Positions 47,698 to 62,195 of a stretch of 64,000 nt of DNA are shown here, in pieces (the stretch's first letter is position 1; each line of letters begins with the position of its first letter). The stretch comes from Promethearchaeati archaeon (lineage in GTDB: Archaea; Asgardarchaeota; Heimdallarchaeia; Heimdallarchaeales; Heimdallarchaeaceae), in NCBI GenBank assembly GCA_013166775.1, contig JABLTJ010000027.1:1-64000 (forward strand). The letters are read 5' to 3'. The notes below the pieces were generated by a model. The model did no database searches and was not told the origin of the DNA. It saw nothing but the letters and a program-made list of their open reading frames with translations. Position numbers and translations under genes: made by a program.

Positions 47698-48045
47698 ATG
47701 AATCTCATAGAAAATTATCGTTTTGGTAAGATCGTTATTAATGGTCAAAAATATAATAGAGACCTTATCGTTTTCCCGGAAGAAATTAAAACAAATTGGT
47801 GGCGTAAGGATGGCCATTCCCTTTGTCTAGAGGATTTAACAGTTCTTGATGATATCAAAACTGATTATCTTGTGGTTGGTATTGGTTCTGCTGGTGTCAT
47901 GAAGGTTCCTTCTGATGTTTTACAAAATCTGAGCCAGAAGGATATTGAAGTCATTGTTCTGAAAACCCCTGAAGCAGTTGAAGAGTATAATCGTTTAGCT
48001 AAAGAAGGGAAACAGGTAGTTGGTGCATTTCATCTAACTTGTTAA
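47698..48045 (+). CDS. Mth938-like (DUF498/AAMDC) protein
   Basis: IENYRFGKI.ING..Y..DLI..WWRKDGH..VVGIG..G.M..T.EAV..YN..GAFHLTC. Confidence 0.92.
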   Translation: MNLIENYRFGKIVINGQKYNRDLIVFPEEIKTNWWRKDGHSLCLEDLTVLDDIKTDYLVVGIGSAGVMKVPSDVLQNLSQKDIEVIVLKTPEAVEEYNRLAKEGKQVVGAFHLTC

Positions 48046-48103
48046 CATTAATCGTGGTTTGTTTTATTCAAAAATTTTTAAGTTAGTGTAAGAAAGATAA
48101 TCC

Positions 48104-48925
48104 ATGGGTTCTAAGAAAAGAGATGAGGAAGTAGTTTTGATTACTGGTGCTACTGGTGGGATAGGTACTGTTACAGCTAATCTTTTACATAACAATGGAT
48201 ACAAAGTTTATGGTACTACTCGGAATCTAAATAGTGCTCCAAAAACATCATTTAAACTTCTACAGCTTGATGTAACAGAAGATACTTCAGTAAAAGGATG
48301 TATTGAGGAAATTATATCTAAGGAAGGAAAGATCGATGTTCTAATCAATAATGCAAGTTTCTCATTATGTGGTTCGGTAACTTATCTTTCAGCCAAAGAT
48401 TTTCAAGCACAATTTGAGACAAATTTCTTTGGTGTTCATAGAATGATTTCAGAAGTTCTTCCAGGGATGTTAGAAAGAGAGGAAGGGAAAATCATCAATA
48501 TTGGTACGCTAGGTGGAAGAGCTGCAATGCCTTTTCAAGCTCCATATAGTTCAACAAAAGCAGCATTAGCAATTTACACTGATACAATCAGGATGGAATT
48601 ACAAACAAAGGGAATTAAAGTTTCATTAGTTGAACCTGGAGATATCAAAACTGATTTTCAAGCTGGAAGAAAATTCGCTAAAGGGTACGAGAATGATTTA
48701 GTAGCTCAGCAAGTAGTTGATTTGTATCATGAAAATGAAAGGAAAGGAACACCTCCAAAAAGAGTAGCAAAGAAGATTCATAAGATTATAAGAAAGAACA
48801 ATCCAAAACCAAGATATCTAGTGGGATTAATGCAAACATTCCTAGTAGGATTTCTCTTTAGATTACTTCCAATTTCCGTACAAGTATGGGGATTAATGTG
48901 GTACTTTAAAATTCCCAGAAACTGA
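48104..48925 (+). CDS. SDR oxidoreductase, candidate 3-ketodihydrosphingosine reductase
   Basis: ITGATGGIG, VYGTTR, LINNA, ETNFFG, YSSTK, VEPGDIKT; adjacent to SPT-type gene. Confidence 0.85.
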   Translation: MGSKKRDEEVVLITGATGGIGTVTANLLHNNGYKVYGTTRNLNSAPKTSFKLLQLDVTEDTSVKGCIEEIISKEGKIDVLINNASFSLCGSVTYLSAKDFQAQFETNFFGVHRMISEVLPGMLEREEGKIINIGTLGGRAAMPFQAPYSSTKAALAIYTDTIRMELQTKGIKVSLVEPGDIKTDFQAGRKFAKGYENDLVAQQVVDLYHENERKGTPPKRVAKKIHKIIRKNNPKPRYLVGLMQTFLVGFLFRLLPISVQVWGLMWYFKIPRN

Positions 48926-49032
48926 AAAGTAAAACATGAACCCTCATATTTTGCTTTTTCATCGTCTCATCTGAAATCTTTATAAAAAACCTCTTAGATT
49001 CATCAATCTAACTTCAATATGCCTAAATTGCA

Positions 49033-50256
49033 ATGGTGGAGAAAATGTCTAAATTCTTTAAAAAATGTAATCGGTATTATCGTTTTGGAGAACCAACTAT
49101 AGCCAAAAATCTTGGTATTTACCCTTATTTTCATCGTATTCATGGAGAGCAAAATCCTATTGTGCAAATGGATGATAAAGATATTATCATGCTGGGGAGT
49201 AATAATTACCTTGGTATGACTTCTCATCCCCAAGTTAAACAAGCAGCAAAAGATGCAATTGATGTATATGGGGTAGGTTCAACAGGGTCTAGATTACTCA
49301 ACGGAACCATGGATATTCACATTGAATTAGAAGAGAGATTAGCTAAATTCATGGGAACAGATGATTGTGTAGTTTTTTCAACAGGAATGCAAGCTAATCT
49401 TGGAGCTATCTCAGCGTTGCTTTCAGAAAAGGATGAATGGATCATCTCAGATCAACAAAATCATGCGTCTATAATCGATGGTATTCGTCTTGGAAGAAAT
49501 AATCCAAAAAACAAAAAAATCTACGATCATTGTAATATGGACTCATTAGCTAAATGTTTGAAAGATACACCAAAAGGTAAAGCTCTAATTGTTACTGATG
49601 GTGTTTTTTCGATGGAAGGAGATCTAGCTAAAATGAATGAAATAATGGATTTAGCTGAAGATCGTGATGCTGGTGTATACATAGATGATGCTCACGCTGT
49701 TGGAGTTATTGGTCCTCATGGGAAAGGTACAGCTGCTCATTTTGATATGGTTGATAAAGTTCATCTAACAATGGGTACTTTTTCCAAAAGTTTTGCAACA
49801 GTGGGAGGTTTTGTTGCTGCAAATGAGCAAATCTGCAATTGGCTAAGGCACAAGGCTAGATCTTTTATATTCTCAGCTAGTCCACCTCCAGCTACATGTG
49901 CTACTGTTTTAGCAATTTTAGATATCATAGAGAAAGATGATTCCTATAGGCAAAAACTTCTAGCAATAGGAGATAAAATGAGAAAAGGATTAACTGATAT
50001 AGGCTTTGATACTGGTAATTCAGTTACACCAATAATCCCACTAGTTGTTGGAGAGACTCGTCGGACAGTTAAATTTTTCAAGAAGCTGTTTGAACACAAA
50101 CCTAGAGGGATTTTTACTAACCCTGTAGTTCATCCTGCTACTCCAAAAGGAAGAGAATTAATCCGTACATCATACATAGCTACTATGACGGATGAAGTAA
50201 CCTCAGAAGCTCTGGATATTTTCGAAGTAGCTGGAAAGGACATGAAGTTGATTTAG
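49033..50256 (+). CDS. spt: PLP-dependent alpha-oxoamine synthase, serine palmitoyltransferase-type
   Basis: IYPYF, GSNNYLG, GSRLLNGT, NHASIIDG, DGVFSMEGD, DDAH, GTFSKS, FIFSAS.PP. Confidence 0.75.
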   Translation: MVEKMSKFFKKCNRYYRFGEPTIAKNLGIYPYFHRIHGEQNPIVQMDDKDIIMLGSNNYLGMTSHPQVKQAAKDAIDVYGVGSTGSRLLNGTMDIHIELEERLAKFMGTDDCVVFSTGMQANLGAISALLSEKDEWIISDQQNHASIIDGIRLGRNNPKNKKIYDHCNMDSLAKCLKDTPKGKALIVTDGVFSMEGDLAKMNEIMDLAEDRDAGVYIDDAHAVGVIGPHGKGTAAHFDMVDKVHLTMGTFSKSFATVGGFVAANEQICNWLRHKARSFIFSASPPPATCATVLAILDIIEKDDSYRQKLLAIGDKMRKGLTDIGFDTGNSVTPIIPLVVGETRRTVKFFKKLFEHKPRGIFTNPVVHPATPKGRELIRTSYIATMTDEVTSEALDIFEVAGKDMKLI

Positions 50257-52102: not shown

Positions 52103-52588
52103 TTGCATCAATCCTTAAAGTTTATTAGGTTAGGTTATAACATCTACGAGATGACAACAATCACTAAAAGCGAAACCAGGAAGAAACCAAATAGTTTTTT
52201 CAAATATCTAGCAATATTTGTAGGTCTTCTTGTAATTGGAACTTTAGTAACAGCTCTAGTTTTGATGTTCACATCATTTAGCTTTAACGGAGGAGAATTT
52301 AATATTGATAGACTGAACCTTTCAACATATTTGTTATATGGTGTTGCAGGATCATTCCCGTTAATCTTTATGCCGACAATTTTTCTATGGGTTTTTTCGA
52401 GAAGAAAAAGTATAATGAATAATGTGAAAATCAGTATGCAAGCCAGAGGAATAGGTCCTTTTGCAGCTAGCTTTCAACATCCAGGAGTAAAAAATGCTAG
52501 ATTTTGTGAATATTGTGGGTATGAAGTTAGAACAGGAGAACGAGAATGTCCAGAATGCAGTGGGCCTGTAAGAAAGTTAGATATATAA
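52103..52588 (+). CDS. 2-TM protein with C-terminal double zinc ribbon
   Basis: FCEYCGY..CPECSG; probable start ATG 52151. Confidence 0.8.
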   Translation: MHQSLKFIRLGYNIYEMTTITKSETRKKPNSFFKYLAIFVGLLVIGTLVTALVLMFTSFSFNGGEFNIDRLNLSTYLLYGVAGSFPLIFMPTIFLWVFSRRKSIMNNVKISMQARGIGPFAASFQHPGVKNARFCEYCGYEVRTGERECPECSGPVRKLDI

Positions 52589-59213: not shown

Positions 59214-62195
59214 ATGATTCCACTTATTGTTCTCTTCAGTTTTTTTTCTTATTTATATGGTTCTATTCCTTTTGCTCTTTTCTTTACCTATGTTTTAACT
59301 AAAAAGAATTTACTTCATGAAGGAACAGGCAATGTGGGTGTTATTAATACCTTTAGAACCGGAGGAACTTTAGCAGGTTTATTAACTGTAATAGGAGAAA
59401 TTTCTAAAGCATTTGTACCATTAGTAATATCATTCTTTCTTTTCGAGAAACAATTGGGTGCATCATTCTTTAATTTCGAGGATGAGCGCTGGATAAGCTT
59501 AATGTACTTATTTTTGACTCTTCTTGGAATAAACTTTTCAATTTTTCTAAGATTTAGAGGAGGGCATGGCTCTACAATGACTTTTTTCTCTACTTTAATC
59601 TTGTCCCCCTTTTCAGCTTTAACTCTACTAGGTATAAACACTATCTTACACTTTTTATCAAGATATGATTTTAGAATAAAGAGATTATGGATTTTATTTA
59701 TCCCTGCGATAATCTATGCATTTGAAAGAAGTAGCATATATGCCTCATTTGGTGCTGCTACTGCGCTATTATTCTTAATTCAAAGTGGAGAAAGTAGAGA
59801 TGATTATGTTAGACACTTCGAAGAATATGAAATGAGTAAGAGAAAAAAACTATCAATAAGATTTCACAAATTATCTTTTTATAAACGTGTACCTTTTATT
59901 GGGAATAAGGCAAATAATCTTGAATTTTTGATATCACAGAAAGTGAAAGTTCCTACAACTTATGCTTTGGATTGGTATATGTGTTCCAAACTCGTCGATT
60001 CAGATAGTGAGATAAAGGAGAAAATTATAATATCAATACAAAAAAGAATTTCACCAACAAAATCCTATGCAATACGTTCTTCTGCTTCAATAGAGGATGA
60101 TCCTGAATTCTCATTTGCTGGACAATTCAAAACTATACTAAATGTTCAAGGAATTGATAAAATCATAAATGCAATTGAAGAAGTCTATAATTCAAAGAAA
60201 AGTAAAAACGTGCAGAAATATATCACCAAATCTAATTTGAAATATGAAAATCTCAGAATGGCTGTTATTGTCCAAGAAATGGTTAATCAAATTTTTTCTG
60301 GCGTAAGTTTCGGAAAAAATCCAATTACGGGATTAGATGAAGTCGTAATTGAAGCAGTTGAAGGGAGCGGACAATTATTATTACAGGATGGGATTACACC
60401 CTTTCACTGTGTCTATAAATGGGGGGAGATACTTACAGAATCTAAAGAAAATCCAATCCCTGTTGAAATTATTCAAATAATTGCTGAAGAGACATTGAGA
60501 ATTCAGAAAAAATATAAAAAACCTGTAGATCTCGAATGGGTTTATGATGGAAAAGAAATAAACTGGGTGCAGGTAAGACCTATATCAACATTTATAGGAT
60601 TGAATATTTATTCAAATAAGTTTTCTAAAGAATTTTTACCAGGTGTTATCAAGCCATTAATCTTTTCCATAAATATTCTTCTCATTAATTCTACTTGGAT
60701 TGATATATTAACTGAATTAATTGGAAAAAATGATTTGGATCCGTATCTGCTAGCTAAATTATTTTATTACCGAGCATATTTTAATATAGGAAAGTTTGGT
60801 CAAATATTCGAAACAGTAGGTTTTCCTAGAGAGTTGTTGGAAATTCTTGTTCTTTCCGAAGGTGAAAATAAGAAGCCTAAGTTCAAAATTACTTTCAAAA
60901 CGCTTAGACATTTACCTAGAGTTGTAAAATTTTTGATTAATAAGTTATTTTTCTTTGAAAAGAGAATTAATAGGGACTTAATCTTGTTAATGAATGAATT
61001 CGAAAAATTTGAAAATGAAAGACTTGATAATGAAACACCAAGTAAGCTTCTAATAATTATTAAGGAATTATTTGAACTAAATAGAAAAATTGCATACTTT
61101 AGTATTATTATTCCTCTTCTTAATTTCTTCTTTAATAATAGACTAACAAGAAAATTAAAGAAATATAAGCTTACTATGGAAAGTTTAAACTATCTACTTA
61201 ATTCTGAGCAAAATCTATCTGATTTCAATCCACATCTTCATTTAGAAGAACTTCATACTGAATTTAAGAACTTACCAGACAATATAAAAACTGAAATAAG
61301 AAAAGGGTCATTTGAGCAATTTCTAGAAATACCAGAAATTACGGTTTTTAAAAAGAATGTTCTGAATTTTATTGATAGATTTGGTCATCTAAGTGATAGT
61401 GGAAATGATTTTTCACTCATACACTGGAGAGAGAAACCAAAACTAATTCTTGAAATGATAATTAATTACACACTCCCAAAGAGCAAGATTGCAGATTCAG
61501 AAATTTTACCTATAAGAAAAATAAAAGGAAAAACCTTAGTGAAAAAAATTAAACGGTATAGATATTATAAAGAACAGATTAGTTTTGAATATACATATAG
61601 TTACAGTCTTTTTAGATCATATTTCTCTGCCTTAGCAAAACAATTTGTTCAAAGAGGAATATTTCAAGAAGAAAATGACATCTACTATCTAACGTTTGAG
61701 GAAATAATTGAAATAATTGAAAAGGATTTATGGAGAGAAAGTAGGCAAGAACAAGTAGATAGAATTAAGAAAGAAATAGAGAAATATAGCGATATTAAAG
61801 CACCAGCAACTATTTATGGAGATAATCCCCCTCCAATTACTTTAGATACGAAAATATATCATAAATACATAGGAACACCTTCTTCTCCTGGTTACTATTT
61901 AGGTCAAATTACTAAAGTAAAAAGCATTGATGAGTTTAACAAAATTCAAGATGGAGATGTTTTAGTTATTCCCTATTCTGATGTTTCTTGGACTCCTATC
62001 TTCTCGAAAGCTGGAGCTGTTATATCAGAAGCAGGAGGTATGCTTTCTCACTGTTCTATTATAGCTAGAGAATATCAAATCCCAGCTGTGGTTTCAGTTG
62101 ATGGAATTTTTCAGCTAAACGATGGTGATACTGTATCTGTTGATGGTTATAAAGGAGAAGTGAGTTTAGTAAAGAGGATTTCTAAAGACCACTGA
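59214..62195 (+). CDS. PlsY-like acyltransferase fused to PEP-synthase/rifampicin-phosphotransferase-like dikinase
   Basis: YLYGSIPF..GTGNVGVINTFR..F.GGHG; GNKANNL, AIRSSASIED..SFAGQF, VQEMV, DLEW..QVRPI; GGMLSHCSIIAREYQIPAV phospho-His domain. Confidence 0.88.
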   Translation: MIPLIVLFSFFSYLYGSIPFALFFTYVLTKKNLLHEGTGNVGVINTFRTGGTLAGLLTVIGEISKAFVPLVISFFLFEKQLGASFFNFEDERWISLMYLFLTLLGINFSIFLRFRGGHGSTMTFFSTLILSPFSALTLLGINTILHFLSRYDFRIKRLWILFIPAIIYAFERSSIYASFGAATALLFLIQSGESRDDYVRHFEEYEMSKRKKLSIRFHKLSFYKRVPFIGNKANNLEFLISQKVKVPTTYALDWYMCSKLVDSDSEIKEKIIISIQKRISPTKSYAIRSSASIEDDPEFSFAGQFKTILNVQGIDKIINAIEEVYNSKKSKNVQKYITKSNLKYENLRMAVIVQEMVNQIFSGVSFGKNPITGLDEVVIEAVEGSGQLLLQDGITPFHCVYKWGEILTESKENPIPVEIIQIIAEETLRIQKKYKKPVDLEWVYDGKEINWVQVRPISTFIGLNIYSNKFSKEFLPGVIKPLIFSINILLINSTWIDILTELIGKNDLDPYLLAKLFYYRAYFNIGKFGQIFETVGFPRELLEILVLSEGENKKPKFKITFKTLRHLPRVVKFLINKLFFFEKRINRDLILLMNEFEKFENERLDNETPSKLLIIIKELFELNRKIAYFSIIIPLLNFFFNNRLTRKLKKYKLTMESLNYLLNSEQNLSDFNPHLHLEELHTEFKNLPDNIKTEIRKGSFEQFLEIPEITVFKKNVLNFIDRFGHLSDSGNDFSLIHWREKPKLILEMIINYTLPKSKIADSEILPIRKIKGKTLVKKIKRYRYYKEQISFEYTYSYSLFRSYFSALAKQFVQRGIFQEENDIYYLTFEEIIEIIEKDLWRESRQEQVDRIKKEIEKYSDIKAPATIYGDNPPPITLDTKIYHKYIGTPSSPGYYLGQITKVKSIDEFNKIQDGDVLVIPYSDVSWTPIFSKAGAVISEAGGMLSHCSIIAREYQIPAVVSVDGIFQLNDGDTVSVDGYKGEVSLVKRISKDH

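Follow-up and report, generated by a model that had tools for sequence, protein, structure and literature searches.

An SPT-like alpha-oxoamine synthase and a neighbouring reductase as candidate sphingoid-base biosynthesis genes in a Heimdallarchaeaceae genome

Sphingolipids count as lipids of eukaryotes and, according to more recent work, of bacteria. Two adjacent genes in the genome of a Heimdallarchaeaceae archaeon (GCA_013166775.1) raise the question of whether some archaea may make the long-chain bases of such lipids as well. The genes lie in the stretch analysed here, positions 1–64,000 of contig JABLTJ010000027.1 (hereafter the window), where three co-oriented open reading frames (ORFs) were confirmed on the plus strand at coordinates given beforehand: a DUF498/Mth938-domain gene (47698–48045), a gene for a classical NADP(H)-type short-chain dehydrogenase/reductase (SDR; 48104–48925, 273 amino acids (aa); PF00106, 148 bits), and a gene for an alpha-oxoamine synthase (AOS; 49033–50256, 407 aa; PF00155, 187 bits). 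Based on sequence comparisons, the AOS is very probably a long-chain-base synthase, and its neighbour is a plausible candidate for a 3-keto-amine (3-ketosphinganine-like) reductase. No paper tying serine palmitoyltransferase (SPT) to Asgard archaea or Thermoplasmatota to sphingolipids, nor one describing the three-gene module discussed below, was found in the literature library searched.

We favour, with moderate confidence, a two-step route to a sphingoid base consisting of a condensation by the AOS and a reduction by the SDR. In the first step, the AOS would join an acyl-CoA of medium or long chain length to an amino acid, probably L-serine; the SDR would then reduce the ketone of the resulting 3-keto long-chain base and so produce a sphinganine-like 1,3-amino-diol. 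The acyl-CoA might be supplied by a long-chain fatty-acid-CoA ligase (FACS) encoded on a different contig (C75), whose ortholog heads a three-gene operon in Thermoplasmatota. A sphinganine-like amino alcohol is the most likely product suggested by these genes; no N-acyltransferase that would act on it was identified.

The central element of this reading is the identity of the AOS, which we classify as SPT-like, and as neither KBL nor BioF, because family models, solved structures, maximum-likelihood (ML) trees, an approximately unbiased (AU) test, and pocket residues agree. Its best NCBIfam match is the model for Bacteroidota SPT, NF047600 (SPT_CFB), with 442 bits, followed by TIGR01825 (400 bits), KBL (384 bits), BioF (357 bits), and CqsA (200 bits). 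Among relatives of solved structure, the SPT of Sphingobacterium multivorum scores highest (331 bits), ahead of T. thermophilus AONS/KBL (267 bits), E. coli KBL (237 bits), Sphingomonas SPT (220 bits), the cysteate acyltransferases (203–210 bits), E. coli BioF (190 bits), and human SPTLC2 (159 bits). The enzyme is 46–47% identical to solved or validated SPTs, including 46% to an SPT of Parabacteroides whose 684 bits exceed the curated cut-off, vs. 36–38% to KBLs. Named references were taken from annotated records and validated with NCBIfam, where a Sphingomonas SPT passes the alpha-type model; the KBL references (E. coli and S. aureus) and three BioF sequences were chosen by bio operon or annotation.

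Phylogenetic analyses place the enzyme in the same group. A quick tree built from 82 sequences joins 57 archaeal sequences and every bacterial SPT in one clade (SH-aLRT 100), with the KBLs in a separate clade (99). A careful ML tree of 53 sequences unites the bacterial SPTs with 30 archaeal sequences (100/99) and recovers the archaeal sequences as monophyletic (99/96), and the AOS is also separate from BioF in the trees. The AU test rejects a grouping of the archaeal sequences with KBL (delta lnL 53.8, p = 0.0085), and in a C20 mixture-model tree computed without the two longest branches, support for the SPT plus archaeal grouping is 99. ALAS, CqsA, cysteate acyltransferase (CFAT), and eukaryotic LCB1/LCB2 sequences were left out of these trees. 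Within this sampling, the AOS belongs to an archaeal clade that is sister to the soluble, homodimeric SPTs of bacteria and spans Heimdall-, Loki-, and Thorarchaeota as well as Thermoplasmatota. The initial annotation had read the enzyme as an SPT, and its placement beside characterised SPTs, apart from BioF and KBL, is borne out by the family models, the solved structures, the ML trees, the AU test, and the pocket residues.

These residues were compared using the roles described for the substrate and acyl pocket of S. multivorum SPT (PMC10196870), whose numbering is used here. The motifs initially quoted for the AOS (GSRLLNGT, GTFSKS, and IYPYF) are all present, and the acyl wall formed by Tyr25, Tyr27, and Phe28 corresponds to Y30, Y32, and F33 of the window protein. 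It also has Asn52, Gly80, Ser81, Leu84, Asn85, His138, Thr241, Ser243, Lys244, and Ala274. Across the archaeal clade, the acyl wall, Asn52, Gly80-Ser81-Arg82, Leu84, Asn85, the pyridoxal phosphate-binding residues, and Ala274 are kept in 55–57 of the 57 sequences, as they are in the SPTs of the CFB type; conservation includes Asn52, Gly80, and Ser243, which contact the serine. At the position of Met271, the archaeal clade and the CFB SPTs alike have an isoleucine. The window AOS departs from S. multivorum SPT by Phe83 -> Leu and Ala79 -> Thr; Ala79 makes a water-mediated contact to the substrate side chain, and its replacement by threonine is found in 57/57 archaeal sequences. KBLs carry Val81 and Ile84 and lack the YPYF motif, and BioF also differs at several pocket positions and has no acyl-wall motif.

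A link between this AOS clade and SDRs is found in Thermoplasmatota-type genomes. All five sampled loci (L069:4277-8042, L072:4252-8054, L073:4230-8045, L165:3294-7068, and L166:655-4436) have an operon encoding an AMP-binding enzyme (538–562 aa), the AOS, and an SDR (271–275 aa) in this order, with an AOS–SDR gap of 11–25 bp and unrelated flanks. Four AMP-binding enzymes were scanned, three from these operons and one encoded at Heimdall locus L012, and the top nine NCBIfam matches of each are long-chain-fatty-acid-CoA ligase models. The operon SDRs reach 325–333 bits on the model of the 3-ketosphinganine reductase KdsR, ~50 bits above generic SDR models, and are 44–47% identical to the KdsR of Parabacteroides hominis. 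In two sister Heimdall genera, the AMP-binding (FACS) gene is located directly upstream of the AOS gene in the same orientation. The genome that contains the window has its best match to the operon FACS at C75:30548-32251 (50% identity; 60% to the Heimdall version), and its best match both to the operon SDR (41%) and to bona fide KdsR (34%) is the window SDR. By these comparisons, the SDR, the AOS, and the ligase elsewhere in the genome match a conserved archaeal three-gene module, and the recurrence of SDRs from a single broad subfamily beside members of the AOS clade speaks for a functional link. The window pair itself is supported by adjacency and best-match status, not by orthology. The wider proposal that Thermoplasmatota, with a tight FACS–SPT–KDSR operon, and Heimdallarchaeia, with the same genes partly dispersed, make sphingoid long-chain bases from free fatty acids is a tentative one.

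Two of the Thermoplasmatota-type loci additionally contain a divergent sulfotransferase gene and two or three genes for hexapeptide-repeat acyltransferases, and one contains an MFS transporter gene; the sulfotransferase and acyltransferase neighbours are hints of N-acylated or sulfated long-chain bases. The neighbourhood of the FACS gene on contig C75 is devoid of lipid genes and holds genes for a PALP enzyme and a zf-PARP protein.

The identity of the window SDR is less clear than that of the AOS. The motifs listed for it initially (VYGTTR, ETNFFG, PFQAPYSSTK, and VEPGD) are all present, and the protein has the features of a classical NADP(H)-dependent SDR, namely GxxxGxG (G15/G19/G21), Arg40 (NADP type), Asn82, Tyr148, and Lys152, except at the catalytic serine position considered below. 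Its C-terminal tail is hydrophobic (maximum KD19 1.84). The initial annotation had likened the SDR to the Bacteroides reductase BT_0972, and this holds insofar as KdsR (NF049977) is the top NCBIfam model with 227 bits, followed by the generic models PRK06182 (213 bits) and another (210 bits). The proposed type is not corroborated by sequence identity, which is 33–34% to bona fide KdsR, 39–41% to the operon SDRs, and 35–40% to generic oxidoreductases, nor by the SDR tree, in which the Heimdall SDRs are a clade apart (95), the SDRs adjoining the AOS in loci L027 and L029 represent a third lineage, and KdsR, operon SDRs, and generic SDRs form a weakly supported mix (88). The assignment of the SDR to the KdsR family is therefore weak. 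The bona fide KdsR used as reference was that of P. hominis, with 479 bits on NF049977; the best KdsR-model match in Prevotella (223 bits) proved to be a generic oxidoreductase, related to proteins of Leuconostoc, Streptomyces, and Cupriavidus, and was rejected as a reference.

Two further observations concern these reductases. At their C-termini, the AOS-linked SDRs and bona fide KdsR have two adjacent aromatic residues and then K or G (KYYK, TFYKI, WYFKI, YYGV; 48880–48925 in the window), a feature missing from five named generic SDR relatives; this motif was defined post hoc and is a lead only. Moreover, among five Bacteroidales isolates whose SPT is bona fide, four (G305–G308: P. distasonis, B. 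neonati, Porphyromonas endodontalis, and P. leei) lack a KdsR-model match at E<=1e-50. Reductases of the BT_0972 type are therefore not found in all bacteria with this SPT, and ketone reduction is served by different SDRs even in bacteria.

A number of findings weigh against a sphingoid-base function of the pair. The 442 bits of the AOS are below the equivalog cut-off of NF047600 (640 bits), which bona fide SPTs of Parabacteroides, B. finegoldii, and Prevotella pass with 649–700 bits, and the archaeal AOS clade branches as a sister group of the known SPTs and not from within them. This position outside the known bacterial Spt set fits a Black Sea survey that found no archaeal metagenome-assembled genomes (MAGs) with Spt-like proteins (PMC11334938). 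First-shell swaps in a related enzyme left the amino-acid choice unchanged (PMC13692747). The 227 bits of the SDR lie below the KdsR cut-off of 400 bits, with a lead of only 14 bits over generic models, and its nearest named bacterial relatives are generic oxidoreductases (~38% identity). Thr135 occupies its catalytic serine position, likewise in half of its clade, and this clade is not sister to KdsR or the operon SDRs in a tree that is poorly resolved. As for gene linkage, the SDR and AOS genes of the window are separated by a 107-bp spacer with a terminator-like T tract and a TATA-like box. Their co-occurrence in the genus is loose (both in ~7 genomes, AOS only in 3–4, SDR only in 2), nearly all genomes of family f6 have the AOS without an SDR ortholog, and in two closed genomes the genes are ~2 Mb apart. 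Finally, tblastn searches of the 88.7%-complete genome for bCerS-like (Rubrobacter and Aureispira queries) and CerR-like proteins returned nothing or generic epimerase-family matches of 22–27%, and a TLC/Lag1 ceramide synthase (PF03798) was not found, which is uninformative as control genomes also gave none.

Many of these points would equally suit an SPT-like AOS beside an unrelated, generic oxidoreductase, the adjacency being a genus-level accident of gene order. In that case, reduction of the ketone would fall to another enzyme or would not occur, as in Caulobacter, where acylation comes before reduction. The occurrence of the pair in only part of one genus with loose co-occurrence, the poorly resolved SDR tree, the narrow lead of the KdsR model, the separate promoter-like signals in the spacer, and the Bacteroidales isolates without a KdsR-model match are all compatible with this explanation. 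We nevertheless consider it unlikely, as SDRs of the same subfamily, from at least three sublineages, repeatedly adjoin the AOS clade (in the Thermoplasmatota operons, in the genus itself, and in L027/L029), and the window SDR is the best match of its genome to both KdsR and the operon SDR.

Another explanation is that the two enzymes do cooperate, but that their product is not a sphingoid base. It could be a shorter-chain amino alcohol, an alpha-hydroxyketone-type signal as made by CqsA/LqsA-like enzymes, or a long-chain base derived from alanine, glycine, threonine, or cysteate, the last as in the sulfonolipid (capnine) pathway. Sequence does not reveal the substrates, and the invariant threonine at the Ala79 position as well as the sulfotransferase genes beside the operon in two Thermoplasmatota loci would be in line with such a product. 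However, the AOS scores far lower on the CqsA model (200 bits) than on the SPT model (442 bits), and lower against the cysteate acyltransferase structures (203–210 bits) than against SPT (331 bits). The clade also has the SPT-type Gly-Ser and not the CFAT-type Gly-Ala, conserves the serine contacts Asn52, Gly80, and Ser243, and is linked to ligases that look long-chain, so that a non-sphingoid product appears even less likely than a chance neighbourhood. The AOS is most unlikely to be a conventional KBL (glycine C-acetyltransferase) or BioF, the identity given by most database labels: the '8-amino-7-oxononanoate synthase' of the source annotations, the 357–400 bits still reached on KBL and BioF models, and the KBL-like C-terminal 'PKGRELIRT' stand against the AU test, the separation from BioF in the trees, the missing KBL-diagnostic residues, a distinct KBL-clade paralog in the genome, the lack of BioB, BioD, and a convincing Tdh in the genome, and the absence of bio or tdh neighbours from ~45 related loci.

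The two-step sphingoid-base route also agrees with the gene content of the genome in this respect. The initial annotation had noted that bioA, bioB, bioD, and tdh are missing from the window, and this extends to the whole 88.7%-complete genome: in tblastn searches, BioB and BioD were not found, the BioA query matched only generic class-III aminotransferases, and the Tdh query matched only a zinc-dependent alcohol dehydrogenase with 29% identity. The second AOS paralog (C65:47944-49134 of the genome, G000; minus strand, L002:1495-2757) scores best on KBL-type models and falls into the KBL clade.

Several side observations concern AOS paralogs and potential downstream steps. The KBL-clade paralog on C65 is located near genes for a lipid kinase of the YegS/diacylglycerol (DAG) kinase family (L002:24-794) and a GtrA-like membrane protein (L002:868-1401); the Bacteroides gene next to a DAG-kinase-family gene is that of SPT itself. 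The DAG-kinase-family lipid kinases of the archaeal genome have only 22–27% identity to this Bacteroides SPT neighbour. A third, divergent AOS type was found in Heimdallarchaeaceae (L060, G074:C1:1693044-1694162; L061, G127:C9:57620-58750). It is 38–39% identical to the window AOS, has a tyrosine instead of Asn52, and branches separately from the SPT, KBL, and BioF groups with strong support. In Rubrobacter (L050:4160-5302) and Aureispira (L043:4431-5588), genes for hypothetical proteins of ~380 aa adjoin SPT-like genes and epimerase-type reductase genes. These two proteins share 32% identity, have zero NCBIfam matches, and may be bCerS-type acyltransferases.

Variability is also found in the distribution of the AOS, which was surveyed in 300 Asgard genomes with at least 58% identity defining a clear ortholog. 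Such orthologs are present in about half of the genomes of the same genus, in three sister genera, in nearly all members of family f6, and in one genome of family f14 ('Loki' records). A second tier of 45–53% identity occurs in families f2 and f27, and the remaining Asgard genomes hold only a KBL-like paralog of ~40% identity. Outside the Asgard archaea, the AOS clade is common in Thermoplasmatota, and its overall distribution is patchy. The neighbourhood differs between groups: in family f6 and in a Thor MAG, a GNAT gene is divergent from the AOS gene, often with an MFS gene downstream. An ortholog of the window SDR gene directly upstream of the AOS gene was found at only six loci besides the window, all in the same genus. 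Conservation of the SDR–SPT pair across Asgard genomes, proposed initially as a check, is thus confined to part of one genus.

The window represents contig C78 of a 115-contig assembly of 3.85 Mb (88.7% complete, 4.5% contaminated), and we examined whether the locus could be bacterial or chimeric. The closest named homologs of both proteins are from Candidatus Heimdallarchaeaceae, with up to 76% identity for the AOS and 59% for the SDR. Orthologs of the flanking ATC-hydrolase-like, flavodoxin, and PEMT-like genes (52–58% identity) occur near the AOS in genomes of the same genus, and GC content is uniform across the window (0.29–0.36). The contig is genuine Asgard (Heimdall) DNA, neither bacterial nor chimeric, confirming the probable Asgard origin assumed initially. 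The window DNA is also present in marine-sediment metagenomes, namely in three DNA runs of one study that is possibly the source of the assembly; no RNA run containing it was found. A scan of the window with Rfam gave zero matches.

The spacer between the SDR and AOS genes (48926–49032, plus strand) has an oligo-T tract after the SDR stop codon and contains the TATA-like sequence ctttataaaaaa at about 48979-48990, ahead of the AOS gene, as read directly from the sequence. These signals suggest a separate promoter for the AOS; each of the two genes may thus have its own promoter, which makes co-transcription of the pair uncertain. Translation of the AOS probably begins at the ATG at 49045, giving a protein of 403 aa, because its relatives are 403 aa long and the alignment begins at residue 5. 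The DUF498 gene (115 aa; PF04430, 96.6 bits) ends 58 bp upstream of the SDR gene and is probably not part of the module; it was rejected as a member, as no homolog is found beside the SDR or AOS in 36 related loci. Further downstream on the plus strand, the window encodes a small membrane protein of 161 aa (52103–52588) that carries a zinc ribbon at its C-terminus, matches no Pfam family, and is separated from the AOS gene by three minus-strand genes (rubredoxin-DUF2231, flavodoxin, and a PEMT/ICMT-like methyltransferase). Its orthologs (45–54% identity) adjoin the AOS gene in the same orientation in eight same-genus loci, making it a conserved AOS neighbour at genus level. A large ORF encoding a PlsY fusion is located ~9 kb downstream of the AOS gene (59214-62195), and in another Heimdall MAG (WJIK01000077.1), a gene of the PlsY family (G3P_acyltransf; L164:4097-4759) lies directly upstream of the AOS gene. 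PlsY genes near the AOS are hence a recurring fatty-acyl lipid context.

If the proposed route is correct, some archaea would build a dedicated class of lipids from fatty acyl chains. Such fatty-acyl-derived, sphingolipid-like lipids could take part in archaeal membranes or signalling, which would blur the lipid divide. Judging from the module, some Archaea probably make sphingosine-like lipid bases, and archaea may then also contribute to the large sphingolipid pools reported from anoxic sediments (PMC12619533). On the practical side, the database label '8-amino-7-oxononanoate synthase' should be treated with caution for this AOS clade. The initial annotation had further suggested a bearing on eukaryogenesis, for which the case is weak, because the enzyme is of the bacterial (Bacteroidota) type and patchily distributed in Asgard archaea. 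A specific link to eukaryotic SPT was not seen among the solved relatives and LCB2 sequences compared: human, yeast, and plant LCB2 score 142–159 bits against the AOS, vs. 331 bits for the bacterial SPT. A 2026 study reported that eukaryotic sphingolipid metabolism, taken as a pathway, is associated with Asgard archaea, with SPT and KDSR unnamed (PMC12872458), and a 2026 preprint lists Asgard sisters for GBA2, SGPL1, and SGPP1 only. The Asgard signal in the former study makes the relationship to LCB1/LCB2 of interest.

Compared with known systems, the AOS differs from eukaryotic SPT (LCB1/LCB2) in being of the soluble bacterial type, and LCB2 scores are low. With the KBL/TIGR01825 enzymes (E. 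coli Kbl, T. thermophilus AONS/KBL), it shares the fold, the catalytic His, Asp, His, and Lys, and moderately high scores, but it falls into another clade with their grouping rejected by the AU test, differs at the acyl wall and at Ser81, Leu84, and Asn85, and coexists with a KBL paralog in the same genome. The sulfonolipid (capnine) pathway of CFAT and 3-ketocapnine reductase (PMC13692747, PMC11211663) follows the same logic of an AOS and then an SDR yielding a long-chain amino alcohol, although CFAT structures score far below SPT and the Gly-Ala of CFAT is Gly-Ser in the archaeal AOS. The Caulobacter ceramide pathway (Spt, bCerS, and CerR; Stankeviciute et al. 2022, cited in PMC11334938) resembles the archaeal system in starting with a soluble Spt and in its tendency towards gene clustering. 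In contrast to the Caulobacter pathway, tblastn of the 88.7%-complete genome detected no bCerS-like or CerR-like gene, an acyl carrier protein is lacking, and the acyl donor is probably CoA-linked via FACS; CerR is of the NDUFA9/epimerase type, whereas the window reductase is a classical SDR.

The remaining comparison is with Bacteroidota. Bacteroides KdsR (BT_0972; NF049977; PMC9278070) is, like the window SDR, a classical NADP-type SDR of ~270 aa from the same broad subfamily, with the KdsR model as top match and the post hoc C-terminal aromatic 'YY/YF-K/G' tail in common. The window SDR is nevertheless only 33–34% identical to bona fide KdsR, is not sister to KdsR in the tree, and has a threonine for the serine, and the Thermoplasmatota operon SDRs are clearly closer to KdsR (325–333 vs. 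227 bits). Bacteroidota-type SPT (S. multivorum, PDB 3A2B/8GUH; Bacteroides BT_0870; NF047600) differs from the archaeal AOS in that the latter lies 200 bits under the family cut-off, forms a separate sister clade, and has Ala79 replaced by threonine, and Bacteroides SPT has a divergent DAG-kinase-family neighbour that the window AOS does not. Both are single soluble AOS enzymes of ~400 aa with a common YPYF acyl wall, GSR[LF]LNGT, Ala274, and an isoleucine at the Met271 position, and both belong to the same strongly supported clade.

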